This document shows positions 17,786-46,727 of a DNA stretch of 64,000 nucleotides, piece after piece. Where the stretch lies: the NCBI GenBank assembly GCA_964421085.1, contig CAYQVO010000002.1, positions 91,134 to 155,133 on the forward strand, in the 5' to 3' direction. The notes under the pieces were generated by a model. The model saw nothing but the letters and a program-made list of their open reading frames with translations. It searched no databases and was not told the origin of the DNA. Positions within the stretch are counted from its first letter, which is position 1, and every line of letters starts with the position of its first letter. The position numbers were made by a program, and so were the translations under genes. This DNA is from an uncultured Bdellovibrionales bacterium (GTDB lineage: Bacteria > Bdellovibrionota_C > UBA2361 > CAYQVO01).

Positions 17786-18769
17786 ATGTTAGATGCGCGT
17801 GTTCAAAAGCTGGATAAGAAAAACCTGTACCTCCTTTCTCTGCTCGATTCAAACTGCCGGATGCCCCTTTCGGAAATGGGCGCAAAGCTTCGCATGACCA
17901 AAGAAAGCATTCACTACCGCATAGGCGAACTGGAAAAGTCGGGGATCATCGATCGCTACTACGTCATCATCGACACCGCAAAACTGGGCTACTATTCGTT
18001 CAAACTCTACCTTCAGCTGCAGCGGGTCCGAGGACCGAGCATCGCATCATTTGCCGGGTTCCTGGCGGATGACCCAGCGGTGTACTGGCTTGCGCATACG
18101 ATAGGCAAATTTGACATTATCGTCGGACTTTGGGTGCAGAACCAGATGGAGTTCGACTCGTTTCTAGTGCGGTTGATGAAGAAGCACGGGGCGAAGATTG
18201 CTGCAAAGCAGTTTACGATCACAAAGTATGGGTTTCAAACGAGCAGAAAGTGGCTCTTCGACAATCAAAACCCGAGCCTGTCAATAATCGGAGGACCTGC
18301 CTTCCAGCATTCCATCGACGCCCTGGACTGGAAAATTCTTTCCCTGCTCTCGACGAACGGAAGGCTCTCCTATTCGAAAATTGCGCAGGAGTGCGGCTCG
18401 ACTGCCGCAACGGTAATTTCCCGGGTAAGGAAACTGGAGAAGTCAGGCGTCATCACGGCGCACCGCATTCACCTGAATCTGGAGAAGCTCGGCATGGAAT
18501 TCTACAAACTCTTCGTCGTGCTGTCCGACAAGACCGAGACTCTCGAAAAGAAAATGATCGAGTACTGCAGCAGGCACCGCAACGTGCTGAATGTTTTGAC
18601 GTGCGTGGGTCCCTGGGACATGGAAATCGAGATAGAGGCGAAGTCTCTCGCCGAACTGAACGAAGTCACACTCGAACTACGGGGTAAATGGCCGAAGAAC
18701 GTGCACTCGGTGGAGTTGGTGTCCATTGTGTCCGAGAAGACGCCGGTATTTTTGCCGAAGGCGAAATAG
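17786..18769 (+). CDS. Lrp/AsnC-family transcriptional regulator with two tandem HTH-RAM modules
   Basis: 327 aa. Two AsnC-type HTH segments (LDKKNLYLLSLLDSNCRMPLSEMGAKLRMTKESIHYRIGELEKSGII and LDWKILSLLSTNGRLSYSKIAQECGSTAATVISRVRKLEKSGVI), each followed by a RAM-like domain. Confidence 0.8.
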   Translation: MLDARVQKLDKKNLYLLSLLDSNCRMPLSEMGAKLRMTKESIHYRIGELEKSGIIDRYYVIIDTAKLGYYSFKLYLQLQRVRGPSIASFAGFLADDPAVYWLAHTIGKFDIIVGLWVQNQMEFDSFLVRLMKKHGAKIAAKQFTITKYGFQTSRKWLFDNQNPSLSIIGGPAFQHSIDALDWKILSLLSTNGRLSYSKIAQECGSTAATVISRVRKLEKSGVITAHRIHLNLEKLGMEFYKLFVVLSDKTETLEKKMIEYCSRHRNVLNVLTCVGPWDMEIEIEAKSLAELNEVTLELRGKWPKNVHSVELVSIVSEKTPVFLPKAK

Positions 18770-24987: not shown

Positions 24988-25758
24988 ATGCAGAGATCAA
25001 CTGCAGATGAAGTTGAAGTATTGAAAATGAGACAGCTTGTGGAGGATAGAGACATCACCATCGAGGCAGGCGCGTCTGTTCAGGAAGCGGATGCAGACCA
25101 TGTCGATATGCTGCTCCTTGGAGAGCTCAGCGGGAAGCTTTCTCCGGAACGCATCTATCCGTCGTCGATTGAAGGCAGGTGTGCGGATGAAAACGTCGAA
25201 CGTCACATTGCGCGTTACAGGTTCGCCGCGGAATTTATCGGCGAGGGTGATGTTGTGCTCGATGCGGGATGTGGAGCGGGGTATGGTTCCGCGATAATCG
25301 CAGCAAAGGCAGGATCAGTAATCGGTGTCGACATATCCGGCGAGGCTGTGGGTTTTGCCCTCGCGACATATCAGAGAAAGAACGTAACTTTTTTGTGCGA
25401 AGATCTGGCCAGGTTCACACGTAAAGACGGAGAGTTCGACGGTGTAGCATGCATCGAAACATTGGAACATCTCGCACCGGAATTGTGCAGGAGTTTCATG
25501 AGAGCAGTCCGGCGATTGCTCAAACCCGGGGGGGTTCTAATAGCGTCATCTCCCATGCTGCGTTACAAAAACGGAAAGCCTTTCATCACGAATCCTCACC
25601 ACATCAACGAAATGCCAAGAGATGCGCTCCTGAGATTTTTCGTCGAAACTCTCCCGGGTTTTGGGTTTCAGTTCTTTCACCAGAAACAGAACGTTTTCAC
25701 GCCTCTTCTCGATGAGAACACAGGGTTTTGTGTCGTCGTGGCGCGGAAGGAAGGATGA
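24988..25758 (+). CDS. Class I SAM-dependent methyltransferase
   Basis: SAM-binding motif VVLDAGCGAGYGSAIIA, then motif II/III (DGVACIETLEHL, LKPGGVLIASSP). 256 aa. Confidence 0.8.
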   Translation: MQRSTADEVEVLKMRQLVEDRDITIEAGASVQEADADHVDMLLLGELSGKLSPERIYPSSIEGRCADENVERHIARYRFAAEFIGEGDVVLDAGCGAGYGSAIIAAKAGSVIGVDISGEAVGFALATYQRKNVTFLCEDLARFTRKDGEFDGVACIETLEHLAPELCRSFMRAVRRLLKPGGVLIASSPMLRYKNGKPFITNPHHINEMPRDALLRFFVETLPGFGFQFFHQKQNVFTPLLDENTGFCVVVARKEG

Positions 25759-26648
25759 TGCCGCCCGATCCCGGTAAAACAATCGCGGATAATCTGCAAC
25801 GGGTAGATGAACTAGTGGAAGGCAGCCTCCGGATTCTCGACGGTTATCCGCTCTTCAGCTGGCTGGAGATCACAGCGACGGATTCGTGCAATCGACGGTG
25901 CGTATTCTGTCCGCATCCGGCAGCTCAGTCAAAGGCCGGCCACTTCATGGCAAAAGCATTGTATGAAAAAATAGCGGTTGAGCTCGAGGCGGTGGGATAC
26001 TGTGGAACTGTGATGCTGGCAGGATACGGAGAACCCCTTCTTTCACGGAATATAGTGGACATGACACGTGTCTTTGCCGGAATCTGCAACACTGAAATCA
26101 CAACCAACGGCGATCCCCTGACACCGCGGTTGATCACGGAACTGATGAACGCCGGAGCTTCGAGGCTCATCGTCAGCCTTTACGACGGCCCCCATCAAAT
26201 CGAGAAATTCTCCTCTATGTTCGCGGAGGCAGGGGCCCCGTCCGTGTTCTACGTTCTGAGAGACCGATGGTATCCGGCGGAAAAAGATTTCGGTCTCAAA
26301 CTGACCAACCGCGCAGGGACCGTTTCTGCCGGGAATCAACCCCCTGTCGATGAGAGCCGGGCATGCTTTTACCCGCACTATATGATGATGGTAAACTGGG
26401 AGGGCAGTGTGTACCTGTGCACTCAGGACTGGAACCGGAAGCAAGCCTGCGGAAACCTCACGACAAGCTCGCTTCTGGAGGTATGGACGTCTCCGCCTTT
26501 CAGGAAATACCGGACGCTTCTTGCAGATGGGCGGCGCGCAATCGAGCCTTGTTCAGAGTGCAACGCTGATGGAATGATGCACGGGAGGAATCATGCGCGC
26601 GGATGGGGGATTTTTTACGGGAAAATGCCGGCGAATGAACCACGATAA
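25728..26648 (+). CDS. Radical SAM enzyme with C-terminal SPASM/twitch domain
   Basis: CxxxCxxC cluster motif (TDSCNRRCVFCPHP), GGEP-like motif (GYGEPLL), and a C-terminal auxiliary-cluster cysteine pattern (CFYP...YLCTQDW...ACGNL...EPCSECN). Overlaps the upstream methyltransferase and the downstream aminotransferase, so they are translationally coupled. Confidence 0.8.
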   Translation: MCRRGAEGRMMPPDPGKTIADNLQRVDELVEGSLRILDGYPLFSWLEITATDSCNRRCVFCPHPAAQSKAGHFMAKALYEKIAVELEAVGYCGTVMLAGYGEPLLSRNIVDMTRVFAGICNTEITTNGDPLTPRLITELMNAGASRLIVSLYDGPHQIEKFSSMFAEAGAPSVFYVLRDRWYPAEKDFGLKLTNRAGTVSAGNQPPVDESRACFYPHYMMMVNWEGSVYLCTQDWNRKQACGNLTTSSLLEVWTSPPFRKYRTLLADGRRAIEPCSECNADGMMHGRNHARGWGIFYGKMPANEPR

Positions 26649-27984
26649 ATTGAAAGATCCATCTCCTCCTGCCTCACTCACGCGGGATCTGATGGAATCC
26701 ATGCCCGATAGAATCCTGAATGAGAGCTACGGGAAGGCGCCCGGTTCCCTCTATATCCGCAGCGCATCCGGATGTTTTATCGAAGATATCGACGGCAGGC
26801 AGTACATCGACATGGCGCTTGGAGGTGGTACCGCGATTCTTGGACATGCCGGTGCCTGTGTCACGGATCGTATCATTTCCCGGATTAAGTCCGGCGCCAT
26901 TTACGCAGTCCCAAATCCCATCGCGCATCAGTATGGCGAAGTTCTGCATGAAGCGATGCCCTGGTTCTCGCATTTCGCTTTCTGCAGCACCGGGTCGGAG
27001 GCGACGATGCGGGCTGTCCGCATTGCAAGGGCCTTTAACGGCAGGCGGAAGATTGGACTGTTCAGCGGCGGCTGGCATGGTTCGCACGATATGGTTCTTG
27101 TGGAGGAGGATTATTCGGGGCCGGAAGCAGAGCCGCGGATGGTTCTGAAATCAGCAGGCACGCCGGAGGAGATCAAAGATCTCATCGTCTTCCTTCCTTA
27201 CAACCATCCTGACGCGTTCGAGCTGATTCGAAAAAATCGATCCGAACTCGCAATGATCATGATTGAGCCGTCCCAGGGATCCAACCCACGGGATGACGTC
27301 GTTCAGTTTCTTCGCGATCTGAGGAAGGTGACGGAGGAAACTGACATACTGCTCTGCTTCGATGAGATCATAACGGGCGGGAGGCTCGCCCTGGGCGGAG
27401 CTCAGGAACTGTACGGGATTCATGCGGATCTCGCGACTTACGGAAAGGTGCTTGGGGGAGGTCTTCCAATAGGAATCGTCGGTGGAAGAGAGGAGGTAAT
27501 GCGTGTCATTCGACCCTCCGCCGCGGAGAATCGCACTCCTGTGTTTCTTGGAGGGACTTTTTCCGCAAATCCGCTCTCTGTTGCGGCAGGGATGGAGGTG
27601 ATGAGGTATCTCCGGGAAAATGAAGCGGTCATCTATCCGTGTTTGAATGAGAACGGAGCTTTGTTGAAGAACGGTGTGAACGAATTCTGCGAAGCACGAA
27701 ATATTCCCGCATATATGACCGGAGCCGGATCGATGCTTCGGCTCGTTTTCAGCAGCCGCTCCGTCAGGTCCCGCCGTGAACGGGATTTTGCCGAAGTAAA
27801 TCCGGAGGTGCAGAAAGAATTTTATGCATCGCTTCTCGCATCGGGCGTGCATGTGGGAACGAACCGGCTTAATTTTCTCTCGATTTGTCATGATCAGACG
27901 ATTATACGGAAGGTGCTGGACTCGTATACGGAAAGCCTCGATAAATTCACCGTGGCGGGGAGATTCCGGAGATCTGCGGAATGA
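26635..27984 (+). CDS. Class-III (PLP, fold type I) aminotransferase, glutamate-1-semialdehyde aminomutase-like
   Basis: Motifs GSEATMRAVRIARAFNGRRKI and DEIITGGRLALGGAQELYGIHADLATYGKVLGGGLPIGIVGGREEVM (PLP lysine region). The start is uncertain (26593, 26635 or 26695). Confidence 0.8.
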   Translation: MNHDKLKDPSPPASLTRDLMESMPDRILNESYGKAPGSLYIRSASGCFIEDIDGRQYIDMALGGGTAILGHAGACVTDRIISRIKSGAIYAVPNPIAHQYGEVLHEAMPWFSHFAFCSTGSEATMRAVRIARAFNGRRKIGLFSGGWHGSHDMVLVEEDYSGPEAEPRMVLKSAGTPEEIKDLIVFLPYNHPDAFELIRKNRSELAMIMIEPSQGSNPRDDVVQFLRDLRKVTEETDILLCFDEIITGGRLALGGAQELYGIHADLATYGKVLGGGLPIGIVGGREEVMRVIRPSAAENRTPVFLGGTFSANPLSVAAGMEVMRYLRENEAVIYPCLNENGALLKNGVNEFCEARNIPAYMTGAGSMLRLVFSSRSVRSRRERDFAEVNPEVQKEFYASLLASGVHVGTNRLNFLSICHDQTIIRKVLDSYTESLDKFTVAGRFRRSAE

Positions 27985-28349
27985 TGAGCAGGTCGGAAAC
28001 AACAGCGCGTGAATGGCTCGAAAAAGGGCGGGAGTATTCCCGGCGGAACGATCCTGGAGAGTCTCTCGCATGCTTTCTCCGGGCTGTGGATCTCGACCCC
28101 TGGTGCCTCGATGCGTATCTTGGCATTGGAGATGTATTCATGGCGAGTGGTCAGTTCCTTGAAGTATTATCCGCTGTCAATAAGGCTGAGGAACGTTTCG
28201 GAGATCATCCCTGGCTGCTTGCGACCCGTGGACATGCCCTTGTCCGCCTCGGGCTGCGCCGAAGAGCGCTCGCTACGTACGAGAAGGGCTGCCGGCTGTT
28301 TCCGGAAGTATACGAAAATGAACTTTTTGCGCAGCGACTGCGTAAATAA
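27981..28349 (+). CDS. TPR-repeat protein
   Basis: 122 aa with three helical hairpins showing the TPR signature (W-LG-Y-A-F-A-P). The stop overlaps the aminotransferase stop/start (ATGA). Confidence 0.55.
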   Translation: MMSRSETTAREWLEKGREYSRRNDPGESLACFLRAVDLDPWCLDAYLGIGDVFMASGQFLEVLSAVNKAEERFGDHPWLLATRGHALVRLGLRRRALATYEKGCRLFPEVYENELFAQRLRK

Positions 28350-28366: not shown

Positions 28367-29749
28367 TTATTTTCTGAGGGCGAGCCTCTGATAAACAAAA
28401 TCCGGCGCTTTGCGGGCTGTGGCTTCTTCATAATGCGCCTTTGCCGTCACGGCATCCGAAGGATCCTGAGAGGAGACAAGTTCCTCCGCGACGATCCGGA
28501 GGATTTCGTGGATTCCTTCACCGCTTTTGACACCTTTCATCCAAAGCTCCTTTATCCGGCCAGTGTGCAGGGAGAGGTCCGGCGAATCTGCTGACAACTC
28601 CTCCGCATCGAACATCGGAAATTCTATCGGAGAGGCTCTGTTTCCAGGTTTGATTGTAATTCTCGGCATGTATGCTTCGGGAAGATTCACACTGTGAAGA
28701 AATTCAGCGATTTCATTCTCGCTCTCTTTCTTCAGCTGGAACCGCGTGTCGTCCAGACATATTCCGAAGGAATCTCCGCACTTTTTCAACCGGGACACGG
28801 TGTTCATGAACTTCTCATACCCAGGAGAGGGGATAAGGCCGCCTCCCGCAATTTTCGAGATATGAGAGTCATTAAGCCCTGGTCCAATGCACCGGTCATC
28901 GGAGTATTCAAGAGGTTTATTTCGAGCATTTTGCCCCGCGAACAGCTCGTCAAAACGGATTTCGAAATCGCTCTCGATACTCCGGTAAGGTATCATCGAG
29001 AACTGCGAGTGGAGCGCGGCAAAGTACACAGCGAACACCTCATTCAGGAATTCCGGCATCACGAAATCCCTTCCGGACATCCTGGCAGCCGTTATCAACG
29101 CTTTCGAAAGGAGATACAGGTCGAAATCCCGGAAAAGAACCAGCAGTTCCCTGAAGTAGAGGAGGAAGGGGACTGTGTATGTGGTTGCTTCACCCCCGAA
29201 GAGGGCACTGCGGCAGAGTGACTGGAGCTTGACATTGAAATGCGTGAGAGCTTCGAGATCGCGCCTTTGAGCGTAAATGACATTATCGTGCATCAAAAAA
29301 GGCATGCTCAGCCATGCCGGAAAGACGTGAACTTTTCCCTGAAATATCTGCGGGAAGGAACCAAAGGGGGTGATTTGCGGCACTTCCCGCCTGTTCAGCG
29401 CGGGGAACAGCTGCTTCATGGAAGGGGAATCTCTGTCGGCTCTGATACGGAAAATGAGGCTGTCATCGGGACACAGCGACAGCCCATTAAACAGGGTCGC
29501 ATGCTGCTGCATGAAATATGCATGCATCGGGAGAAGGTCTACTGGCTCTGAAGAAACAGTCGTGATGCCGTATTTTCGCAGCTCGGACTGCAGGTGCGGT
29601 CTTCCGACAAGCTCCTCTTTCCATGTCGAGAAGATAATTTCATCGACAAGACCGTCAGATCGCCACTGGAGCAGCCGCGTGATGGTTACCATGAACTCGA
29701 GTGAGTCACGTATCTGACCAGTCACAATGGCATAGATCCGTTTTCTCAC
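28367..29749 (-). CDS. Hypothetical protein, paralog A of a divergent pair (unknown family)
   Basis: 460 aa. The N-terminal roughly 250 aa align with the protein at 29859 (YAIVTGQIRDSLEFMVTITRLLQWRSDGLVDEIIFSTWKEEL vs WAIICGLVRDRRAFEEKINSLVQWRSEGILEETVVSTWLGEL; LCPDDSLIFRIRADRD vs SCPDDAHVLKLRADLF; FPQIFQGKVHVF...DNVIYAQRRDLEALTHFNV vs WPQIFNERVVVG...GDVYFYGLRDDLKKLVTFTV). I do not recognise the family. Confidence 0.5.
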   Translation of the reverse strand: MRKRIYAIVTGQIRDSLEFMVTITRLLQWRSDGLVDEIIFSTWKEELVGRPHLQSELRKYGITTVSSEPVDLLPMHAYFMQQHATLFNGLSLCPDDSLIFRIRADRDSPSMKQLFPALNRREVPQITPFGSFPQIFQGKVHVFPAWLSMPFLMHDNVIYAQRRDLEALTHFNVKLQSLCRSALFGGEATTYTVPFLLYFRELLVLFRDFDLYLLSKALITAARMSGRDFVMPEFLNEVFAVYFAALHSQFSMIPYRSIESDFEIRFDELFAGQNARNKPLEYSDDRCIGPGLNDSHISKIAGGGLIPSPGYEKFMNTVSRLKKCGDSFGICLDDTRFQLKKESENEIAEFLHSVNLPEAYMPRITIKPGNRASPIEFPMFDAEELSADSPDLSLHTGRIKELWMKGVKSGEGIHEILRIVAEELVSSQDPSDAVTAKAHYEEATARKAPDFVYQRLALRK

Positions 29750-29858
29750 AAAGAAATCCTCCAGGGTCTGTCCGTCCGTCCGGGCAAAAGAGACGCGTTG
29801 ATGCTGAACGGTTCTCCCATTATACTTACATTATCAATATCCTTCCGGAAACTGACTA

Positions 29859-31019
29859 ATGAGAAACTGGGCGATAATCTGCGGATTGGTGAGAGACAGG
29901 AGGGCTTTCGAGGAGAAGATCAATTCTCTCGTACAGTGGAGGTCGGAGGGGATTCTCGAAGAGACAGTTGTTTCCACCTGGCTCGGAGAACTCAATGCTT
30001 ATGAAGGCCTTTCGAAGAGCCTGGCCGACAAAGGTGTCATTGTTCTGGAGAGCCTCGAGCCGGAGCTGATCCTTTCGGGTCACAGGATCCATCAGATGAA
30101 GACGCTCGCATACGGGTTGGAATCGTGCCCGGATGACGCTCATGTACTGAAGCTCAGGGCTGATCTCTTCTCTTTTTTCCCCGGTATAAAGCAGGTGCTG
30201 GAAGGGCGGGTGGATACGGCCATTGCGCCGGATCCCGGATGGCCGCAGATCTTCAATGAGCGAGTTGTTGTGGGCACCTTCCTGCCCATTCAGCCATTTT
30301 TCATCGGGGACGTTTACTTCTATGGATTGAGAGACGATCTTAAAAAGCTTGTTACATTCACAGTGGAGCCGGAACTATGCTCTCTGCTGATGAATCCCGA
30401 ACAGGTTTTTCATTTTGCACCCTTCCGGAACCATTTTCAGTTCTTCTTCCAGTATTTCCGGATCAATCCGGGCCTTGTACATCACAGCGTTCAGATGGCG
30501 AGCGATCTCGTGAGGTTCCTGCTCGACGAACCATTTTTCCTGAAAACACTCGCGTCCTGGTTGATGCTTCTCCGGAGGTATTACAGGGTCGGATTCTTCG
30601 AGCGAAGCGAAGGACATTCGCTGCAGGCAGCGGAAGAATTCGCAGGAGTCTCGCTGCCGGAATTCCTTGACCCGATGCTGGAATGTGGGCCTTCATTCCG
30701 CTATGTGGTAAGGCCTGCCAACGCCGTGGGTGGGTCTGATGACGCATGGGTTGCCCCCTGCCTCAACGGAGATTTTCAGCATGATGTGTTCCGCGACCGT
30801 TTCATGGAAGCAGTGGACAGCTTTCCGGATTTTGAATCCTTCCAGAGATTCGGCCAGTCCCCGCTCTACCTTTCAAGTGATGCGATAGAGTTCGCCCGCA
30901 GGCTCAAAAAGAGATTTCCGGATGCGCCCTTTGTCCTGGAAGATCTCCCCGAATCGAGGGGGAGGAGTGTAAGGATCCAGGGGAAACCTTTCGACGGAAT
31001 GGTCAGAGCGGGCCGCTGA
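29859..31019 (+). CDS. Hypothetical protein, paralog B of a divergent pair (unknown family)
   Basis: 386 aa, homologous to 28367..29749 (see there). Divergently transcribed from a shared 109-bp intergenic region. Confidence 0.5.
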   Translation: MRNWAIICGLVRDRRAFEEKINSLVQWRSEGILEETVVSTWLGELNAYEGLSKSLADKGVIVLESLEPELILSGHRIHQMKTLAYGLESCPDDAHVLKLRADLFSFFPGIKQVLEGRVDTAIAPDPGWPQIFNERVVVGTFLPIQPFFIGDVYFYGLRDDLKKLVTFTVEPELCSLLMNPEQVFHFAPFRNHFQFFFQYFRINPGLVHHSVQMASDLVRFLLDEPFFLKTLASWLMLLRRYYRVGFFERSEGHSLQAAEEFAGVSLPEFLDPMLECGPSFRYVVRPANAVGGSDDAWVAPCLNGDFQHDVFRDRFMEAVDSFPDFESFQRFGQSPLYLSSDAIEFARRLKKRFPDAPFVLEDLPESRGRSVRIQGKPFDGMVRAGR

Positions 31020-31027
31020 GCTTGAGA

Positions 31028-31909
31028 TCACCGTATCAGCTTACTGTACATTTCAGGATAATCCGTGCAGATCGCGTCCGCGCCTGTTGATACAAGATCC
31101 TTTGCCCGCGATAACACACGTTCGATTGATCCTCCATCCTCGTGCGCCTCTCCACCGGCAAGGGCAGGGGATGATGAATGAAGTTCCGGGCTGACGAGGG
31201 CCACGGAAAACCCTTCGCTCCGGGCCGACTCGATGATGTCCCGGGTGTAAAACGCCTTCTTCCGCCCGTTGACATCGGCTCGATCCCACTCATCCAGCCA
31301 TATCCAGTCAAAGACATGTCTGTATGGGAGGACAGCATCGAGGCTGTAGAGCGTGTCTGAAACACACTTGCTGTATCTCTCGATATCGAACGGGTGCGCA
31401 ACCGAAGGTGCAAGGTGAATATCCCGAAGTTTTTTTCTCAGACATGACGCGGCGTCAATGGTGAGATCGAAAACAAGCATGTTCTTGTGCAGTTCTTCGA
31501 ACCCCCCAAGAATGTCTGCGAGAACCTCAAGGTTTTTTTCTGACTGATGATGTCCTTTGAGGTGGAGTGCCTTGAGCGCCGATGATGAAACGGTCCGTAT
31601 CAGAGCGAGGATGTCCTGTAATGTCATTAAATCCGGCGCGGCGTCCCGCACTTCGTCCGCCATAAGGTCGTCAAATCTCCTTCGGTCCTTCTCAGCCGAT
31701 ATTCTCGCTATGTCGCAGTCATGCCAGATGAACGGCTGAAGGTCGCGGCTGAATACGACATCGAATTCGATTCCAAACCCCCGCGTCAGATGGCTCCTGA
31801 AAGCTTCGGGGGACGACTCTCGGTGCAGGAACGCCGCATTGTCCGGCTCGAGCCCCCGGTGAGTCACTATGAAGGGTGGAGAGATACGATCAATGACAGG
31901 TGACGTCAT
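31028..31909 (-). CDS. Glycerophosphodiester phosphodiesterase (GDPD) family protein
   Basis: N-terminal GDPD catalytic signature IVTHRGLEP...ESSPEAFRSHLTRGFGIEFDVVFSRDLQPFIWHD (the HR..E..DV..HD motif). C-terminal ADAICTDYP. Confidence 0.7.
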   Translation of the reverse strand: MTSPVIDRISPPFIVTHRGLEPDNAAFLHRESSPEAFRSHLTRGFGIEFDVVFSRDLQPFIWHDCDIARISAEKDRRRFDDLMADEVRDAAPDLMTLQDILALIRTVSSSALKALHLKGHHQSEKNLEVLADILGGFEELHKNMLVFDLTIDAASCLRKKLRDIHLAPSVAHPFDIERYSKCVSDTLYSLDAVLPYRHVFDWIWLDEWDRADVNGRKKAFYTRDIIESARSEGFSVALVSPELHSSSPALAGGEAHEDGGSIERVLSRAKDLVSTGADAICTDYPEMYSKLIR

Positions 31910-32630
31910 TTGCGGCCTCGTAAGCCTGCAGGTCTTCCGGAGTTCCGAGACCGTGCATGGCCCATGGTGCGATTTCGAAAATTCCCACCTTCTTCCGCGC
32001 CAGCAGTATCTCGTTATAGACGGGACAGACGTAAAACTCGCCGTTTACTCTGATGTTTTTCTCTATCATCGATACCGCACCCTCGAAGAAGAGGGAACCT
32101 TGCTCGAAATAGTAAATGCCGACAGTCGCATGAGAGCTTATCGGTTCCTTTTCCGCGACGCATTCCACCAGCCCCTCCGGCGATAACTTTGCATAAGACC
32201 ATTTTGGATGGGCTGACTGGAATGTGAGAATGTCTCCGTCCAGTCCGCGTTCCTGTGCATCCGATATGAGGGAGTCAATGTCGAGATCTATCAGCTGGTC
32301 GCTGTTTGCAAGGACCAGAGGGGAATCATTATTGAAAAAGTCGGCGGCAAGCAAAACCGTACACGCTGCGCCTTCCGTGACTTTTTCCACAGTGACGATG
32401 TTGCATCCGGGGGCCAGCGCGTCAAGAAGTTCTTCAAGATTGAACTGCTGACAATGCTCGCGCCGGCATATAAAGGTGAACTTATGATCGATGTCAGGCC
32501 GCACGTTATCGATGACATGGGAAATCATCGGCCTGCCTTTTACGTCTATAAGAGGTTTGGGCAGGGAGTACCCCGCCTCCGCGAAACGTTTCCCGTTGCC
32601 TGCCATTGGAATTACAATGTTGATCGGCAT
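31890..32630 (-). CDS. Sugar/alcohol-phosphate nucleotidyltransferase (LicC/IspD/MobA-like NTP-transferase fold)
   Basis: N-terminal motif IVIPMAGNGKRFAEAGYSLPKPLIDVKGRPMISHVIDNV is the typical glycine-rich nucleotide-binding loop. 246 aa. Overlaps the GDPD and HAD genes, forming an operon. Confidence 0.7.
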   Translation of the reverse strand: MPINIVIPMAGNGKRFAEAGYSLPKPLIDVKGRPMISHVIDNVRPDIDHKFTFICRREHCQQFNLEELLDALAPGCNIVTVEKVTEGAACTVLLAADFFNNDSPLVLANSDQLIDLDIDSLISDAQERGLDGDILTFQSAHPKWSYAKLSPEGLVECVAEKEPISSHATVGIYYFEQGSLFFEGAVSMIEKNIRVNGEFYVCPVYNEILLARKKVGIFEIAPWAMHGLGTPEDLQAYEAANDVTCH

Positions 32631-33262
32631 TCTTCCATTCCCTCCATGAGCTCTCCGGACAAAAATTCAGTAAAGAGAGACTTGTTCACTTCATTGTACG
32701 AATCGACTCCAATAAGGAACCCCCCGCTCGCACGGGCTGCGGCTTTCCCGTGGTCGGAATCTTCCACGATCGCGCACTGTTCAGGAGAAAGTTTCAACAG
32801 CTGAAATGCGCGAAAATAGATCTCCGGATCGGGCTTCGGCAGTCTCACGTCTTCGTTCCCAAGCACTAGAGAGAAGCAGTCGAAGATGCCGCTTTTCTTC
32901 AGCATCAACTCGACACTTCTGTTGACAGCGTTTGAACACACGGCGAGTGTAAATCCCGACTTCCGCAGCAGTTCGAGCATTTCGATTTTTGCGGGATCAG
33001 GACGACAGCGCGCACAGATTGTTTCATAAGTGTATCGCTGCTTGAGGGAAATAACCGGCTTATGAAGCGCCGAAGGGAAGCCTTTGTGAGCAGACAGCGC
33101 TTCGAGCTTCTTCCGGGTAGGAAGACCGTTATAGAATGAAAGATGTTCTTTGCGGGAAATGGTAAATCCAAACGTCCCCAGCGCTTTGTTCAGCGCTTCG
33201 TAGTGCCACTCAGCGGCGTCGACAAGAACTCCGTCGAGATCGAATATTACAGCTTCAATCAT
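32612..33262 (-). CDS. HAD-superfamily hydrolase (subfamily IA, beta-phosphoglucomutase/phosphatase-like)
   Basis: Motif I MIEAVIFDLDGVLVD at the proposed start (ATG 33262, preceded by AGGGA). Motifs II/III (LAVCSNA, GNEDV...KPDPEIYF, VEDSDHG). The ORF track extends the frame to 33355. Confidence 0.8.
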   Translation of the reverse strand: MIEAVIFDLDGVLVDAAEWHYEALNKALGTFGFTISRKEHLSFYNGLPTRKKLEALSAHKGFPSALHKPVISLKQRYTYETICARCRPDPAKIEMLELLRKSGFTLAVCSNAVNRSVELMLKKSGIFDCFSLVLGNEDVRLPKPDPEIYFRAFQLLKLSPEQCAIVEDSDHGKAAARASGGFLIGVDSYNEVNKSLFTEFLSGELMEGMEECRSTL

Positions 33263-33433
33263 TCCGCATCCCTGCTCAAAAGATCCATGGGCAACTTCAC
33301 AACGCGCAGGCGCTGAAGTTCCCTCAGTAGAATACTCGGCTGAAAAGATCCGCATCTTTAAAAGTTTCTTGTCAGAAAGGACCAGGAATTTTTCCTATGA
33401 AAGGACCATGGAACATTGTAAAGTTCCGGGAGA

Positions 33434-34081
33434 ATGGACATTTTTAAATTTGCAGAAGGAATAGAGCGAGGAGCTGGTTCCGCACGGCTTCCCGGCGGTT
33501 CTTTCAACGCCCACTTTGGAAGCGCCTTCAAAGCAGTCCGCAGAGTGTCTCCGGCCGATTTCGTCCGCTTCAGCATTCTCAACTTCGCCGTTCAGCAGCT
33601 GTCGGTCCGGAGCGCATTCATGCCCGCCACTGAACGATATCTCTTTGCGGGAGGTCTTTCAGATACCGACTTTGCGGCTTCTCTCATCGGGATGGTCCCT
33701 TTTCTCCGGGCTTATTTTGCGATTCCCCCCGGAGGGGAGAGTGCAAGTGTTTCTGAAGCGAAACAGATCATCTCCGGAGGCCGGGAAGACGATTTGAAGA
33801 CATTCGAAGTGGTGAACAGGACTCCGGCCGGGTTTCTGTTACAGGAGCCTGAAGCGTCGTTCGGCCTTGTTTCTCTGATCTCGAACGGACAGGAGACTTT
33901 TTCCCGGGAATTAGTTCCCGTTCTGGCTGATTCTCTCAGTTCCGGCGGAACCGCTGTCATGACGGTTCCCTCCGGCGAGATTCCTGAGAATGCGGCCGGC
34001 TTTTCGAGAGTCTGGACATCAACACTCGAGCCGCTTTGTCCGTTTGGGGGATTTACTCTCTGCATACTGAGGAGATTCTGA
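33434..34081 (+). CDS. Hypothetical protein
   Basis: 215 aa. First gene of a plus-strand operon with the GT61 and radical-SAM fusion genes (stop/start abut at 34081/34082). No recognisable motif. Confidence 0.4.
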   Translation: MDIFKFAEGIERGAGSARLPGGSFNAHFGSAFKAVRRVSPADFVRFSILNFAVQQLSVRSAFMPATERYLFAGGLSDTDFAASLIGMVPFLRAYFAIPPGGESASVSEAKQIISGGREDDLKTFEVVNRTPAGFLLQEPEASFGLVSLISNGQETFSRELVPVLADSLSSGGTAVMTVPSGEIPENAAGFSRVWTSTLEPLCPFGGFTLCILRRF

Positions 34082-35239
34082 TTGAACAGCGTGGAATTCA
34101 GGGCGGAGGATTCGTTTTTGACGCTCGAACGCGTTTCGTCGATGAGTGATGAGCCCGAAAGAGAAAGCCTTGTCCTTTTGCGGGAAGCAACACAGTATCC
34201 CAATGCAGAACCGCTCTTTGTGTATGCAGATGAGGCCATACCTGAAGTGTCGCGCAGCCTCCTGTACCGCCAGGCATGGAGCATCGATCCGTCGTACTGT
34301 GTCAAACTTCCCGGCGGCTCGGTATACGGGGAGTGCGGGATAGTGACGGGAGGAGGGGTTTTTCTGCATGATCTCTCGACGCTTGCCGGACGGCATCGCA
34401 AGCCGGCAGAAGTAACCCGGCAGGAAGACGGGAGTGAAATCGCAGGATTCAAAACTGTGAAGCCGGAATACCGCGACTGCTCCGCGGCAATCCTGTCTCC
34501 CCTTATCGCGTGCGGCAAAAATCATTCTCACTGGCTTTTTCATGCGCTGCCTAAAGTGCAGATTTTCAGGGATGCGTCGGTTGCCCCCGACTTTTTCCTT
34601 GTTCTCCCGGCAGTTGCCGGATATCAGCGGGACACCCTGAAAGCACTCGGAATAGGCGATGATCGGATACTTGTGCGCGATCCGGCGCAACCGATGAAGT
34701 TCCGTGAACTCTATGCGTCGTACACGCAGAGCGACGTTTCACCGGACATGACGATCTATGATGAAATCATATCTAAAGTGGATCGGGGAGAGGAAGGACC
34801 TGAAAGAATCTATGTATCCAGAATGGATGCCAGGGGTATGCGGCGTTTCATCAACGAGGAGCAGGTCATTGATGTTGCCCGGAACAACGGATTCCATATA
34901 GTCACCCCCTCCGAGCTTTCGTTTGAAGACGAAGTAAGAATTTTCCGGAATGCCCGCATTATTGCCGGTCCCGTCGGTGCGGGTCTTTACAATGCCGTCT
35001 TCACCCGGCCGGGCTGCGTCATTGTAGCCATGAGCGAACCAGCTTATGTAATGGACTGGCCGCTGCAGCTCGCGTCGCTTCGAAAACATTCCATAGGCTA
35101 TCTTCTCGGGAACAGTTTTCTCTCGATGGAACCGGTACACCGGGGGTGTCACAACAGCTGGGTTCTCAATCCGGCTCTCTTCGATCTGGCGCTTAACAAC
35201 CTTCTTTCCGGCAAAGACGCGGCCAGGGCGGGCAGGTGA
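34082..35239 (+). CDS. Glycosyltransferase family 61 / DUF563 protein
   Basis: HWLFHALPKVQIF motif, and a C-terminal block RRFINEEQVIDVARNNGFHIVTPSELSFEDEVRIFRNARIIAGPVGAGLYNAVFTRPGCVIV that is characteristic of DUF563/GT61 (EOGT-like) transferases. Confidence 0.65.
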   Translation: MNSVEFRAEDSFLTLERVSSMSDEPERESLVLLREATQYPNAEPLFVYADEAIPEVSRSLLYRQAWSIDPSYCVKLPGGSVYGECGIVTGGGVFLHDLSTLAGRHRKPAEVTRQEDGSEIAGFKTVKPEYRDCSAAILSPLIACGKNHSHWLFHALPKVQIFRDASVAPDFFLVLPAVAGYQRDTLKALGIGDDRILVRDPAQPMKFRELYASYTQSDVSPDMTIYDEIISKVDRGEEGPERIYVSRMDARGMRRFINEEQVIDVARNNGFHIVTPSELSFEDEVRIFRNARIIAGPVGAGLYNAVFTRPGCVIVAMSEPAYVMDWPLQLASLRKHSIGYLLGNSFLSMEPVHRGCHNSWVLNPALFDLALNNLLSGKDAARAGR

Positions 35240-35300: not shown

Positions 35301-38300
35301 ATGGATCCGAACAGGCTGATAATCGACTTTAAAAAGCAACTTGGTAACAGAAACACCTCCGCTGTTCATGCTCTCGATATCTTCCGTGATTTGAGAGACG
35401 TTCTGGAGCAGGAAACAAAATCCGATCCTCTCCTTGCCGCAATAAGGGAAAATATACTGCGGCTTTTCATGCAGAGATCCTGTCTGCTTCCCGACCTGGA
35501 ACGTGAGGCGGCTGTTTTGAACCTGATTCTTCAGGATTCCCGTTCCAATACTGCTGAAATATCCTCCGGGCTGGAAGAATGGGGGCGCTCAGTCGCGGAA
35601 CTTTCTGAAATCCTGCGTGGAATCAAAACCCATGTGACACAGATGGCGACGCGACACCGTATGACGGAGCAGAAACCTTCCGTGGTCCGGATTGAAAACA
35701 GTAATTTCAGCGAGGCTCGTGAACTCAATATAAAGATCCTCGCCTGCGAGATGCTGCTTGGCAGCACCGATCCGGCTCCCTTTCCTCCGAACATGCAGGT
35801 GGAATCAACCAGCAGGTGCAATGCGCGGTGCAGAATATGCGGGCACTTCTTCCATCCCGCCAGGGCATACAGAGATCTCGATTTTCAGGTGTTTCTCAAA
35901 TTGTCGCCCGTTCTTCCGTATGTCCAGTGCCTTGAACTGCACACTTATGGAGAAGCCTCTCTCGCGCCGCATTTCACCGCCATGTGCGAAGTCTGCAGGA
36001 GCTTCGGCTGCAGAACGCATGTGCTTACAAACGGCTCGACTCTTGGGGTGGATAGTCCCCTGGCAGACGTAGACCAGATTGGAATCAGCGTTGATTCAGA
36101 CAACGAACGCACCTTTGACGCCGTCCGCAAAGGGCTGCGGTTCAAAACAGTGATCGAAAACATCAAAGCGTTTCGCCGGCGGAATCCGGACAATTTCATG
36201 TACTTTCTGGTGACGATACACCGGGCGAATGTAGATGAAATATCCGGCATAGCCGGACTAGCCTGCGATCTGGGCCTTCAGGCCGTCTGCCTCAGTCTCA
36301 TGTCGGCCATTCATCCGTCACTGCGGCCGGTCACTTTAACGGCCCAGGACGTTCCTCTTTACCGGGAGGAAGTGGAGAAAGCAGAAAGAATCTGCTCGAA
36401 GCGCGGCGTAGATGTGTATGATTACGCTTTTCTGGACGGTCTCCCCGATCAGACGGAACCTCTGAACAAGGAGGCATGTTTAAGGGTGTTCGAGTCGCTT
36501 ATCCCTCCATCTGCCGGCGCGCCGCCCGATATTGAAGAGTTGACAACGAGGCTCGCAAAGATTGAGTGCGGCGCATATCCTGCGTCCCTGCACCGGTTTT
36601 TCACACTGGAAGCCGCGTCTTTCGAATCCACTCGAAAAGCGGAGATCGAAAGAGTCCATGAAGACACTTCTATGGAACCTGTCACGGTCGATACCGGCAG
36701 GCTGAAGGAACGGCTGCATGAACTCCGGAGTGAAATAGAAAGGCGGGGCAGGGATGCGCTCGTAATTCCGTACTGTACCGCCCCCTGGTTCAGGCTTGAA
36801 GTGAAGGCGGACGGAGGGATCTTCCCCTGCTGCAGCTGGAAAGGACCACCGTTTGCCGATCTTGCAGTTCAGTCTGTCGCGGAGATATGGCACGGGCCGT
36901 TCATGACGGCGCTCAGGCAGGGATGTTACGGCGAAGGAGAACTCCCTCCTTTCTGCCTGAACTGCAGGAGCATAGACCGTTATCAGGGCCTGACTGAAAC
37001 GATCAGCACGATGAACGAATTCGGCCTGGACTATAACACAATCCGGAAGATTCCCGGGTTTTCTCCTCCGCCCGGGAAACTCCAGCTTATACGCGCGGGC
37101 GCGCCGGAGATTGAATACGTTCCCATTGATAAATCGTATCCGGGAGGATTTTACGAACTCCGGGGGGATGCAGAAGGGCGGGGGAACAGGAGCAGTGGTT
37201 ACGACTTTGTCATCTCGCCCGGCCCCAGGCTCTTCTGCGAAAGACCTTCGAGCATGCGAAGCAGAAAGATTTCCTGTGGAGTTCTCGGCGGCGCTTCCCT
37301 TCCTTTGAAGGACATCCTGAAGCTCGAAGGACGCCCGCGTGTATCGATAACAGAAACCGCTCATGAATTATTCCCCTCCGGTCTTTTGTTTGTGTCTGTC
37401 CGTTTCCGTAATGAAGGTGAAGTGCCGCTCTTCGGCAGGGATTCGCATCCCGATTGCGTGGACAGAGCGGGACTGCGCGTGCTTAAGCAGGAAGCCGGAG
37501 TCACATCGGCAGCGCGTGAAGAAAGAATGGATATGCCGTTTGAGTGGATACTCCCCGGATCGGAGTACCATATCTCGGGACTCTTTGACTTCTCGGGCCT
37601 TGAACCCGGGACATACACGGTGGAGACAGGAATTGTCCGGGAAGGAGAATTCTGGATTTCGGAGGAATCTGAACGGCGAAGCTTTGAAATAACCACGGCA
37701 GAAGCCTCAACCATGACTCCTGTCGAAGTGTCGAGAGTTCCGGGATCGAAAGGGATTGCGCTTACATTCGACGCGGGAGCGTCAATACCGCCTTCGGACG
37801 CCCTTCTCGATTTTCTGCAGAAGAGGCGGATGCAATGCACAGTTTTTCTGACCGGGAGGTCGATAGCCTCTTTTCCTGAACATGCGCGTCGCATCGCGAA
37901 TGAGGGGCATGAAGCGGCAAACCACACATACAATCATCCATGGCTGTCCTTTCTGCACGATCCCCATCCGGCGCAGGGAGTGGACAAAGACTTTCTCATG
38001 AAAGAGCTTTATTCCACCGAAGAGGCCTTCTTCAAAACGACAGGGCGCACGATGTCGAGACTCTGGCGGGCTCCCTACGGAGCAAGAAACGCGGAGATTC
38101 TCAAATGGGCGATGGAAGAAGGATTTACTCACGTTTTCTGGTCGCACGATTCAAACGACTGGAGGATAGGCTCTTCCCTTAATTCCATGAAGTGTACCCC
38201 GCAGAGCGTCTTTGAGACGCTTAAGAACAAACTTCGCCAGTTTGATGATGCCGATGGCGCTGTAGTTCTATTTCACCTCTCGACCTACAATCAACCGGAC

Positions 38301-38390
38301 ATGCTTTCAGAGATGTCGAAATTCATCGACTGGATTGCCGGCCGGGGTCTTGCCTTTCGGACGGCAGGCTCTCTTCTCACGATGATCTGA
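35301..38390 (+). CDS. 1029-aa fusion protein: N-terminal helical domain, radical-SAM core, SPASM domain, beta-rich linker, and C-terminal NodB-type polysaccharide deacetylase domain
   Basis: Radical-SAM cluster motif ESTSRCNARCRICGHFF at residues about 166-180. SPASM cysteines IPYCTAPWF...GGIFPCCSWKG...GCYGEGELPPFCLNCRS at about 490-560. NodB motifs IALTFDAGAS...CTVFLTGRSI...GHEAANHTYNHPWL at about 820-910, with conserved Asp, His and His positions present. Confidence 0.8.
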   Translation: MDPNRLIIDFKKQLGNRNTSAVHALDIFRDLRDVLEQETKSDPLLAAIRENILRLFMQRSCLLPDLEREAAVLNLILQDSRSNTAEISSGLEEWGRSVAELSEILRGIKTHVTQMATRHRMTEQKPSVVRIENSNFSEARELNIKILACEMLLGSTDPAPFPPNMQVESTSRCNARCRICGHFFHPARAYRDLDFQVFLKLSPVLPYVQCLELHTYGEASLAPHFTAMCEVCRSFGCRTHVLTNGSTLGVDSPLADVDQIGISVDSDNERTFDAVRKGLRFKTVIENIKAFRRRNPDNFMYFLVTIHRANVDEISGIAGLACDLGLQAVCLSLMSAIHPSLRPVTLTAQDVPLYREEVEKAERICSKRGVDVYDYAFLDGLPDQTEPLNKEACLRVFESLIPPSAGAPPDIEELTTRLAKIECGAYPASLHRFFTLEAASFESTRKAEIERVHEDTSMEPVTVDTGRLKERLHELRSEIERRGRDALVIPYCTAPWFRLEVKADGGIFPCCSWKGPPFADLAVQSVAEIWHGPFMTALRQGCYGEGELPPFCLNCRSIDRYQGLTETISTMNEFGLDYNTIRKIPGFSPPPGKLQLIRAGAPEIEYVPIDKSYPGGFYELRGDAEGRGNRSSGYDFVISPGPRLFCERPSSMRSRKISCGVLGGASLPLKDILKLEGRPRVSITETAHELFPSGLLFVSVRFRNEGEVPLFGRDSHPDCVDRAGLRVLKQEAGVTSAAREERMDMPFEWILPGSEYHISGLFDFSGLEPGTYTVETGIVREGEFWISEESERRSFEITTAEASTMTPVEVSRVPGSKGIALTFDAGASIPPSDALLDFLQKRRMQCTVFLTGRSIASFPEHARRIANEGHEAANHTYNHPWLSFLHDPHPAQGVDKDFLMKELYSTEEAFFKTTGRTMSRLWRAPYGARNAEILKWAMEEGFTHVFWSHDSNDWRIGSSLNSMKCTPQSVFETLKNKLRQFDDADGAVVLFHLSTYNQPDMLSEMSKFIDWIAGRGLAFRTAGSLLTMI

Positions 38391-45665: not shown

Positions 45666-46727
45666 ATGAAGACTAACGGATCCGCAGAGAAAATTAAATC
45701 AAGGCAGGAAGCCGAAGGCATAATAAGGCAGTGGCAGAAAGAGGGAGCTTCAGTCGGCTTCACCTCCGGTGTGTTTGACCTTATTCATGCCGGGCACGTC
45801 GAATACCTCGAAGATGCTGCTGGGAACTGCGATCGCCTTGTGGTCGGTGTCAATTCGGACTCCTCCGCGCGCGAACTGAAGGGGGAAAAACGCCCGATTT
45901 GCTCCGAGAAGAGCCGGGTTCAGGTTGTGGCAGGTCTGGCATGTGTGGATCTTGTTTTTACTTTTGACGAGCGGAACAACAATAAAAACGTCGATGTTCT
46001 GAAGCCCGATGTTTATATCAAAGCCGGCGATTACTCCTCGTGCGCTCTGACATCGGGGAGCATCGTGGAGTCTTACGGCGGACGGGTCCATATTGTTCCA
46101 TTCAAGAAAGGATTTTCCTCGACTGGAATAATCAACCGCATTCTTGAATCTCACCTGGATGAGCTTCCGGAAGCGGGGCCGAAGGTCCGGTACAAAAAAA
46201 TGCCTGCAGTCTTTCTCGACAGGGATGGCACGATAAACGAGGAAGTGGATTATCTGGGCGATCCAAAGGACATGAAGATGATTCCCGGCGCGGCTGAGGC
46301 AATGGGAAAGCTCACCGGCGCGGGATACAGACTTATCATCGTGACGAATCAGCCCGGGATAGGTTTTGGTTATTACACGGCGCCGGATTTCTTCAGAGTG
46401 AACAAGGAAATTCTCAAAGAGGCGGGTAAAGCAGGCGCGAGAGTCAGCAGAATCTATTACTGCCCCCACACGCAGGCCGACAATTGTGGATGCAGAAAGC
46501 CGCTCACGTATTTTATCGAGCGCGCAGCGAAAGAGATGAACATTGATCTCGGCGGAAGTTTCGTTGTCGGTGACAGGACATGCGATATCGAGCTTGGAAG
46601 AAATGCGGGCGTAAGGACCATCCTTGTCGGGACGGGCGCCGCCGGCAAAGACGGGCAGTATGAGGTGACGCCGGATTACATCGCGGCTGATCTTGCTGAA
46701 GCGGTGAAGATTATTTCAGCTGTGTGA
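45666..46727 (+). CDS. Bifunctional D-beta-D-heptose 1-phosphate adenylyltransferase (HldE domain II, RfaE-II) / D,D-heptose 1,7-bisphosphate phosphatase (GmhB)
   Basis: N-terminal cytidylyltransferase-fold motif GFTSGVFDLIHAGHVEYL (HxGH). C-terminal HAD-IIIA motifs AVFLDRDGTIN, IVTNQPG, and CPHTQADNCGCRKP (GmhB zinc-binding Cys). No RfaE domain-I kinase is present in the window. Confidence 0.8.
   Translation: MKTNGSAEKIKSRQEAEGIIRQWQKEGASVGFTSGVFDLIHAGHVEYLEDAAGNCDRLVVGVNSDSSARELKGEKRPICSEKSRVQVVAGLACVDLVFTFDERNNNKNVDVLKPDVYIKAGDYSSCALTSGSIVESYGGRVHIVPFKKGFSSTGIINRILESHLDELPEAGPKVRYKKMPAVFLDRDGTINEEVDYLGDPKDMKMIPGAAEAMGKLTGAGYRLIIVTNQPGIGFGYYTAPDFFRVNKEILKEAGKAGARVSRIYYCPHTQADNCGCRKPLTYFIERAAKEMNIDLGGSFVVGDRTCDIELGRNAGVRTILVGTGAAGKDGQYEVTPDYIAADLAEAVKIISAV

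Follow-up and report, generated by a model that had tools for sequence, protein, structure and literature searches.

A divergent gene pair in a bacterial polysaccharide locus represents a rare, unnamed enzyme family with a predicted GT-A-like fold

Here, we describe two divergently transcribed genes in the window (the whole 64,000-nucleotide stretch of Bdellovibrionales DNA that was analysed), whose products, ORF A and ORF B, are paralogs that separated long ago within an enzyme family that is rare and has no name. We use "family X" as a working label for this uncharacterised family. Its catalytic domain is predicted to adopt the GT-A / nucleotide-diphospho-sugar-transferase fold, and in at least six unrelated lineages its genes adjoin a conserved module. 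We propose, with about even confidence, that ORF A and ORF B are cytoplasmic transferases decorating a glycan with the nucleotide-activated product of this module.

Results

The gene pair and its shared intergenic region

A preliminary description of this DNA reported a divergent pair of 460 and 386 aa, 109 bp apart, and the coordinates in the ORF table agree with it. The pair and its immediate neighbors are as follows.

27981..28349, plus strand: TPR protein, 122 aa, with TPR matches; convergent with ORF A, its start overlapping the stop of the upstream aminotransferase gene
28367..29749, minus strand: ORF A, 460 aa, GTG start, divergent family X member; N-terminal catalytic domain predicted at about residues 1-250, then a C-terminal region unrelated to that of ORF B
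29750..29858, 109 bp: divergent intergenic region with the Shine-Dalgarno sequence of ORF A and a conserved block
29859..31019, plus strand: ORF B, 386 aa, ATG start, typical family X member; N-terminal GT-A-like domain at about residues 1-165, conservation to about residue 245, helical C-terminal domain
31028..31909, minus strand: GDPD-family phosphodiesterase-like protein, 293 aa (PF03009, E 3e-10); convergent with ORF B
31890..32630, minus strand: sugar-1-phosphate nucleotidyltransferase (RmlA/GlmU-like), 246 aa; conserved family X neighbor
32612..33355, minus strand: HAD-IA enzyme of the beta-phosphoglucomutase (beta-PGM) family, 247 aa; conserved family X neighbor

The GTG start of ORF A is supported by a GGAGG Shine-Dalgarno sequence on the minus strand (29758-29762), 9 nt upstream, by retention of this codon in the related contig L002, and by the presence of strand beta1 and the invariant residues G11 and R14 within the first 19 residues. 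L002 also preserves the adjacent divergent arrangement of the two genes and carries the TPR gene in synteny. The intergenic block at 29784-29858 is about 88% identical to that of L002, compared with 76-80% for the flanking proteins, and contains a promoter-like TTGATG-17-TATACT for ORF B; promoter-like matches in the 109-bp region are no more numerous than expected from shuffling. A foreign island was rejected on composition, the GC content of 0.52-0.54 being similar to that of the rest of the window.

Size and distribution of family X

Searches of Pfam and NCBIfam with ORF A and ORF B at E <= 10 returned nothing except one meaningless 12-bit match, and membership of PF00483, PF12804, or PF01128 was not detected in either collection. 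A profile search of PDB sequences with family X gave no match, and all named members are annotated "hypothetical protein," in keeping with the earlier statement that the pair could not be assigned to a named family. Word-indexed homolog searches were nearly blank (3 and 1 matches, and only 4 with the profile version), and an exhaustive HMM search was needed to reveal the family, which among 1.84 billion representatives has 583 clusters at a threshold of E <= 1e-3 and 469 at a threshold of E <= 1e-10. The phylogenetic distribution, proposed as a check in the preliminary description, spans many phyla: members were found in cyanobacteria, Alphaproteobacteria, Nitrospiraceae, Clostridia, Treponema, Bdellovibrionota, and one Pacearchaeota MAG. 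No match was obtained by tblastn against plasmid and phage sequences.

WavE (PF07507), which, like family X, occurs in surface-glycan loci, was the one named family to which a sequence link, a weak one, emerged. WavE proteins participate in LPS core synthesis in Vibrio and relatives; to our knowledge, their biochemical function is not established. Six of 70 family X members matched WavE at E <= 0.01 (best E 1.6e-5, below the Pfam threshold), whereas the other 64 did not, and ORF A and ORF B gave no match even at E <= 10. Judged by these matches, any relationship between the two families would be distant at most.

Conserved residues

Across 153 sequences, the residues G9, R12, W41, Q79, R100, D102, D151, and D160 (ORF B numbering) are 97-100% conserved. 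The strongest invariants, G9-x-x-R12, S-T-W41, Q79, and R100-x-D102, had been overlooked in the preliminary description. All motifs that it listed are present, and two of them contain residues conserved family-wide, D151 in D(N/D)VY and D160 in RDDL, while CPDD and LVQWRS are confined to the pair.

Every one of these residues is retained in both proteins, the equivalents in ORF A being G11, R14, W43, Q82, R103, D105, D155, and D164. Since ORF A keeps all invariants, the possibility that it is a pseudoenzyme was rejected. ORF A does deviate at several positions with fairly good conservation among B-type members (G74A, H75Y, H78Q, K81A, and G156A, the last replacing G156 of ORF B by Ala).

Relationship between ORF A and ORF B

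Over 207 residues at their N termini, the two proteins are 36% identical (BLASTP, 100 bits, E 2e-27), a similarity far beyond chance that identifies them as paralogs. Beyond about residue 207, BLASTP found no significant similarity between them, in line with the diverged C termini noted earlier. The similarity had been put at roughly 250 residues, which is a fair description given that family-wide conservation extends to about residue 245 of ORF B. Proteins from other phyla resemble ORF B much more closely than ORF A does (P0015, E 5e-82), and the best non-orthologous relatives of ORF A are proteins of about 530 aa (P0067, E 1e-33), its subfamily consisting of proteins of about 500-600 aa. The two thus belong to different subfamilies, which rules out a recent tandem duplication as the origin of the pair.

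One could envisage an obligate heteromer in which one of the two proteins is catalytic and the other serves as a regulatory or scaffold subunit, as is the case for some GT-A complexes. The adjacency of the divergent genes, also in L002, and the deviations of ORF A from the B-type subfamily would fit such an arrangement. However, ORF A retains all residues with 97% or higher conservation among the 153 members, most genomes with family X contain a single copy, and the subfamilies of ORF A and ORF B each occur alone elsewhere, so that we consider a heteromeric pair highly improbable. The earlier suggestion of paired transferases therefore holds in part: "transferase" is consistent with the GT-A fold of the high-confidence model and with the polysaccharide locus, but the closer kinship of ORF B to P0015 and the predominance of single-copy genomes leave a recent or obligate pair unsupported.

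Predicted fold and active site

Structure prediction, another check proposed at the outset, yielded an AlphaFold model of ORF B from 70 sequences with a pLDDT of 94.7 and a pTM of 0.93, which replaced an earlier run with 5 sequences only (pLDDT 59). In structure comparison, the model exhibits a Rossmann-like alpha/beta/alpha domain with GT-A strand order, and its best matches are the CDP-alcohol-forming cytidylyltransferases IspD and TarI. For the helical C-terminal domain of about 200 residues, no structural match was found.

The predicted fold would be shared with GT-A glycosyltransferases such as mannosylglycerate synthase (GT78), GT2 enzymes, GalNAc-T1, and GlfT2. Family X differs from these in its C-terminal domain, in the lack of any sequence match to a Pfam GT family among ORF A, ORF B, and 70 relatives, and in its active-site signature. 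Canonical GT-A enzymes carry a metal-binding DXD motif at the end of beta4. This motif is absent from family X, in which all 153 sequences have R100-x-D102 (K-x-R-x-D) at this position, with only the second Asp present, in addition to the invariant G-x-x-R after beta1. Metal-independent GT-A families exist, and the missing DXD thus does not rule out a transferase function.

The invariant G9-x-x-R12 follows beta1, where nucleotidyltransferases have their GxGxR signature, of which the second Gly is absent. Its position raises the question of whether family X proteins are themselves nucleotidyltransferases, activating a phosphorylated intermediate with NTP without transfer to a macromolecular acceptor. 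We regard this as improbable. The catalytic Lys downstream of the signature is not conserved, position 20 being a Lys in 25 of the 70 members only. A Pfam NTP_transferase match is lacking, and profile-profile comparison with 13 neighboring NTP_transferases by hhalign gave a probability of 0.2%. Identity to enzymes of the IspD/TarI/RmlA/GlmU type is at most 14%, and family X proteins exceed these enzymes by 150-650 residues and contain extra domains. Moreover, the loci already encode 1-3 bona fide nucleotidyltransferase domains, and the large variable C-terminal domains, together with fusions of the X domain to an N-terminal TPR in P0039, P0043, and P0050, fit recognition of a macromolecular acceptor.

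A conserved module next to family X

Genes for HAD and NTP_transferase proteins lie within 8 kb of family X in the window, in L002, and in six independent loci (L001, L003/L014, L005, L008, L011, and L017). In these six, orthologs of the nucleotidyltransferase (45-52% identical) and of the HAD-IA enzyme (41-49% identical) adjoin family X. The module comprises a GDPD-like phosphodiesterase gene, a beta-PGM-like HAD gene, 1-3 sugar-1-phosphate nucleotidyltransferase genes, and sometimes a cupin gene (L008, L011, and L017). Most loci of the set formed by the window, L002, and the six independent loci contain a GDPD-like gene, and small GDPD-like genes adjoin HAD, NTP_transferase, and X genes in L001, L007, L008, L010, L011, L014, and L017. 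Simple glycosyl transfer does not explain the presence of this gene. Among the 13 loci with sufficient flanking sequence, 3 (L006, L009, and L012) lack the HAD/NTP module, showing that the link to a donor is not universal. Also encoded in the vicinity are GT2 enzymes, pyruvyl transferases, epimerases, and methyltransferases, a content that identifies family X loci as polysaccharide loci.

This context is comparable to that of TagF-like CDP-glycerol glycerophosphotransferases (PF04464), with nucleotidyltransferase genes and a phosphodiesterase gene in a glycan locus. A TagF-like match, according to the preliminary description, would have made the pair ordinary. No Glyphos_transf domain was detected in ORF A, ORF B, 70 relatives, or ten long relatives (549-888 aa, four of them 870-888 aa), and the predicted fold resembles GT-A, whereas that of TagF is GT-B-like; a TagF-like identity was therefore excluded.

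Discussion

In the mechanism that we propose, the N-terminal Rossmann-like domain of each protein would bind a nucleotide-activated donor, with three candidate contacts: the G-x-x-R loop that follows beta1 and the S-T-W and R-x-D motifs that terminate beta2 and beta4, respectively. The Arg residues may contact the phosphates, and D151 or D160 may act as the base. The donor would probably be supplied by the products of neighboring genes, the beta-PGM-like HAD mutase/phosphatase, the sugar-1-phosphate nucleotidyltransferase(s), and, in some genomes, the cupin. The activated group would then be moved onto a glycan or glycoconjugate acceptor. Recognition of this acceptor would fall to the C-terminal half, which is helical and variable, perhaps together with the adjacent TPR protein, a likely partner or adaptor of family X. 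ORF A and ORF B might place the activated group on different acceptors or positions, and the difference between their C-terminal halves makes different acceptor specificities plausible. Donor, acceptor, and the kind of group transferred, glycosyl or phosphoryl-linked, are all what we infer here.

It is tempting to speculate that family X proteins are phospho-substituent transferases. In this case, an NDP-activated donor would provide a sugar-1-phosphate, an alditol-phosphate, or a similar phosphoryl-linked group, which would be attached to a hydroxyl of the glycan with release of NMP and formation of a phosphodiester. Family X would thus take the role of TagF, LicD, or Stealth proteins, but with a GT-A-like fold. 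The GDPD-type gene conserved in the module implies phosphodiester chemistry, and the invariant R12 and R100, located where GT-A enzymes use DXD and a metal, suggest direct binding of phosphate in the model. The top structural matches to IspD and TarI and the methyltransferases in the vicinity point in the same direction. A likeness to the Campylobacter MeOPN (phosphoramidate) transferases Cj1421 and Cj1422, adjacent paralogs with a conserved N terminus, a divergent C terminus, and a CDP-activated donor, serves as a lead only. However, we know of no GT-A-fold enzyme with such an activity, the neighboring nucleotidyltransferases resemble the sugar-1-phosphate (RmlA/GlmU) type rather than IspD/TarI, and family X has no sequence or fold match to TagF, LicD, or Stealth proteins. 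On balance, we consider phospho-substituent transfer unlikely, though less so than a nucleotidyltransferase function. Equally tentative is the bolder view that family X constitutes a new GT-A-fold catalytic class, metal-independent and with an R-x-D site, which installs a substituent (sugar-1-phosphate or polyol-phosphate) through a phosphodiester link. The substituent would be made by a four-gene module (GDPD-like, beta-PGM-like HAD, nucleotidyltransferase(s), and X) that is dedicated to this purpose, horizontally mobile, and common to at least six bacterial phyla and one archaeal MAG.

The value of family X lies in enzyme discovery and annotation, and it has no bearing on a long-standing open question. 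If the transferase function proposed for ORF A and ORF B is true, family X would be a new transferase family, and a candidate for a new family of the CAZy type, distinguished by its unusual active-site signature, and several hundred "hypothetical proteins" would gain a function. Its loci would represent a portable four-gene module for surface-glycan modification, distributed from cyanobacteria to gut Clostridia and spirochaetes, and could lead to a novel nucleotide-activated donor, perhaps a beta-anomeric NDP-hexose formed via the beta-PGM-like mutase.

Divergent paralogs in a glycan-type island

BLASTP aligned residues 4-207 of the open reading frame A with residues 2-201 of the open reading frame B, at 36% identity over 207 residues (100 bits; E 2e-27), and detected no significant similarity beyond this stretch. 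This bears out the pair of paralogs diverging over 109 bp that was proposed in the preliminary description, with exact coordinates. The products of neighboring genes were assigned by Pfam and NCBIfam scans.

Genes of the island around A and B
24988-25758, +, SAM methyltransferase (DVU_1556-type methyltransferase match)
25728-26648, +, radical SAM/SPASM protein
26593-27984, +, class-III (GSA-aminomutase-like) aminotransferase
27981-28349, +, TPR protein
28367-29749, -, A, 460 aa, GTG start
29750-29858, 109-bp intergenic gap between the diverging genes
29859-31019, +, B, 386 aa, ATG start
31028-31909, -, GDPD-family phosphodiesterase
31890-32630, -, RmlA/GlmU-like sugar-1-phosphate nucleotidyltransferase
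32612-33355, -, HAD-IA enzyme, beta-phosphoglucomutase (beta-PGM) family
33434-34081, +, protein without assigned product
34082-35239, +, GT61-like protein
35301-38390, +, radical-SAM/SPASM/polysaccharide-deacetylase fusion, 1029 aa

A and B, each apparently monocistronic, converge on a flanking operon each, at distances of 17 bp and 8 bp. Farther out lie housekeeping genes, on one side for an ABC exporter and on the other for MreBC, PBP2, RodA, and IMPDH. Based on this gene content and on the housekeeping genes at both outer sides, the region is a chromosomal glycan-type island, as had been proposed; its GC content (0.52-0.54) is like that of the remainder of the window. The start codon of the TPR gene overlaps the aminotransferase stop codon (ATGA), suggesting translational coupling. 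The longest aminotransferase ORF shares 56 nt with the radical SAM/SPASM gene, and its Pfam match starts at residue 53, so that the true start may be situated downstream. In the 1029-aa protein, radical SAM and SPASM domains are followed by a C-terminal NodB-type polysaccharide deacetylase, an unusual architecture for a glycan-modifying protein. Two further ORFs were noted outside these genes: 45666-46727 (+), outside the island, encodes a 353-aa fusion of cytidylyltransferase-like (HIGH-motif) and HAD phosphatase-like parts, a nucleotide-sugar-type enzyme, and the 327-aa product of 17786-18769 (+), in which two AsnC-type HTH/ligand domains and a weak NirDL-like match were detected, resembles the siroheme decarboxylase AhbA/B of the alternative heme pathway. 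Taken with the DVU_1556-type match at 24988-25758, the latter protein hints at a host similar to sulfate reducers.

The GTG start of A is supported by a GGAGG motif that precedes it by 9 nt on the minus strand, by its retention in the related contig L002 (window 29693-29749 (-), corresponding to L002 9848-9904), and by residues 1-19, which align to the N terminus of B and hold strand beta1 and two family-invariant residues (Gly and Arg). These 19 residues are missing from the public A ortholog P0004 (444 aa), the start of which was placed at an internal Met; its deposited gene model is therefore probably truncated. L002, a Logan contig, is the one contig in which the whole island and the A/B arrangement are kept. 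A 75-bp intergenic block (29784-29858) is approximately 88% identical in L002, the flanking proteins being 76 to 80% identical. It contains a promoter-like TTGATG-17-TATACT sequence upstream of and facing B, and a promoter scan of the intergenic region gave a count not above chance. The block may hold a regulatory site.

A rare family without a name

In a word-indexed search of 5.8 billion proteins, B retrieved itself, an 80% identical ortholog (P0002), and one 34% identical relative (P0003), and A retrieved one 76% identical ortholog, P0004. A five-sequence profile, searched exhaustively with HMMER against 1.84 billion representatives at 50% identity, matched 583 proteins at E <= 1e-3; of these, 469 passed E <= 1e-10 and 147 passed E <= 1e-30. 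The family, here named X, is thus genuine but rare. Carriers among species-representative genomes are a Microcoleaceae cyanobacterium, Azospirillum doebereinerae, Nitrospiraceae, Rhodospirillaceae, Oscillospiraceae, Ruminiclostridium, Acetatifactor, Treponema, Bdellovibrionota, and a Pacearchaeota MAG; plasmid and phage collections yielded no relatives.

The preliminary description had named no family for A and B, in agreement with the absence of Pfam and NCBIfam matches at E <= 10 for either protein and of any PDB sequence matched by a 70-member X profile. Members from Acinetobacter and Levilactobacillus are called "hypothetical protein" in their sources. When the 70 members were scanned, the sole recurrent Pfam family was WavE (PF07507; 6 members, best E 1.6e-5). 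WavE, for which we know of no established biochemistry, is the nearest named family at a subthreshold level, and the link is weak and distant. By the tests available, X falls outside every named GT, NTP-transferase, TagF, LicD, and Stealth family.

Outside its ortholog, B best matched P0015 (36% over 376 aa, E 5e-82), among proteins of about 385 to 440 aa from other lineages. A best matched P0067 (33% over 260 aa, E 1e-33), among proteins of about 530 aa, and this match is stronger than that between A and B. By these similarities, A and B are old paralogs rather than a recent pair. Most loci of other genomes carry a single X gene, and this predominance of single-copy genomes makes it very improbable that A and B form an obligate heteromer. 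Two tandem X genes (938 and 915 aa) are present in the Oscillospiraceae MAG L007 (7914-13323). Representatives of about 870 to 888 aa (P0096, P0111, and P0134) possess C-terminal extensions of about 550 residues without a Pfam match.

Predicted fold and putative active site

AlphaFold modeled B poorly from five sequences (pLDDT 59) and with high confidence from a 70-sequence alignment (pLDDT 94.7, pTM 0.93). In the latter model, strands beta1 (residues 2-8), beta2 (35-41), beta3 (61-65), and beta4 (94-100) alternate with helices (14-29, 51-57, and 73-88), more strands follow around residues 136-157, and the C-terminal half is mostly helical. Structural matches include the nucleotidyltransferases IspD, TarI, RmlA, GlmU, PntC, and CMP-sugar synthetases; Foldseek gave the same picture, with a best match no better than E 1.3e-3. 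No structural counterpart was found for the C-terminal approximately 200 residues. A TagF-type (GT-B-like) identity was rejected, since no such structure was among the matches.

In a MAFFT alignment of 153 X sequences, eight columns were at least 97% identical, and A and B both retain all of them: G9, R12, W41, Q79, and R100 (each 100%), D102 and D151 (99%), and D160 (97%), in B numbering. On the model, G9-x-x-R12 forms the loop after beta1, S39-T40-W41 closes beta2, R100-x-D102 closes beta4 at the place of the DXD motif of GT-A enzymes, and D151 and D160 lie on either side of strand 153-157. Rare and unnamed, the X family combines a GT-A-like fold with a fixed set of polar and charged residues; the putative site at these positions resembles that of a nucleotide-binding transferase. 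Unlike in canonical GT-A enzymes, Arg replaces the first Asp of DXD. The Gly/Arg loop recalls the GxGxR of nucleotidyltransferases; X does not conserve their Lys, which only 25 of 70 members have at position 20. That X itself is a nucleotidyltransferase is quite improbable, considering this missing Lys, the lack of homology to 13 neighboring NTP_transferases in a profile-profile comparison (probability 0.2%), the up to three bona fide nucleotidyltransferases beside which such an activity would be redundant, and the extra acceptor-like domains.

Conserved neighborhood and putative function

The window neighbors served as tblastn queries against 13 distinct X loci with usable flanks. Orthologs of the HAD enzyme (41 to 49% identity) and of the nucleotidyltransferase (45 to 52% identity) were found no more than a few kb from X in L001, L003/L014, L005, L008, L011, and L017, and also in the syntenic L002. 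The nucleotidyltransferase is often duplicated there, its two copies being fused or adjacent, with a further NTP-like gene of 231 aa as the third. A small GDPD-like gene (205 to 216 aa), distantly related to the window GDPD (E 9e-7), accompanies them in L001, L014, L008, L011, and L017 and is near X also in L007 and L010, and a cupin gene (109 to 124 aa) lies between two nucleotidyltransferase genes in L008, L011, and L017. The module was absent from L006, L009, and L012. Where present, it comprises the small GDPD-like, beta-PGM-like HAD, and nucleotidyltransferase genes, an optional cupin gene, and a second nucleotidyltransferase gene; as a portable unit, it adjoins X in unrelated phyla (L001, L008, L011, L014, and L017; window 31028-33355). 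Between lineages, these neighboring enzymes are better conserved than X itself (25 to 36%). Other neighbors are GT2 proteins, polysaccharide pyruvyl transferases with FrhB-like partners, epimerases/dehydratases, and methyltransferases. Within polysaccharide loci, X has a conserved association with enzymes making nucleotide-activated sugars or sugar-like phosphates. N-terminal fusions of TPR to the X domain (P0039, P0043, and P0050) tie the adjacent TPR gene (27981-28349) to A and B by the logic of gene fusion.

As the most likely function, we infer with about even confidence that X proteins are transferases moving the nucleotide-activated compound that the HAD/NTP(/cupin) module makes onto a glycan or glycoconjugate, and would putatively work like GT-A-type transferases. 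Cupin, HAD enzyme, and nucleotidyltransferase resemble the isomerase, mutase, and pyrophosphorylase route from hexose-6-phosphate to NDP-hexose, and with a mutase of the beta-PGM type, the anomer made may be an unusual one. The acceptor would be chosen by the variable C-terminal half, perhaps with the TPR partner, and the acceptors of A and of B would differ. The Campylobacter MeOPN transferases, which use a CDP-activated donor, may resemble A and B as adjacent paralogs with divergent C termini. Transfer of a phospho-substituent with formation of a phosphodiester, which we consider unlikely, is favored by the presence of a GDPD-like gene among the conserved neighbors, by the Arg-rich site, and by the resemblance to IspD/TarI.

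In the libraries searched, the X family, its active-site signature, and the four-gene module are undescribed; the fold and general enzyme class are familiar. X is well suited as a target for enzyme discovery, and it would hold a mechanistic or biological surprise only if it indeed forms phosphodiesters.
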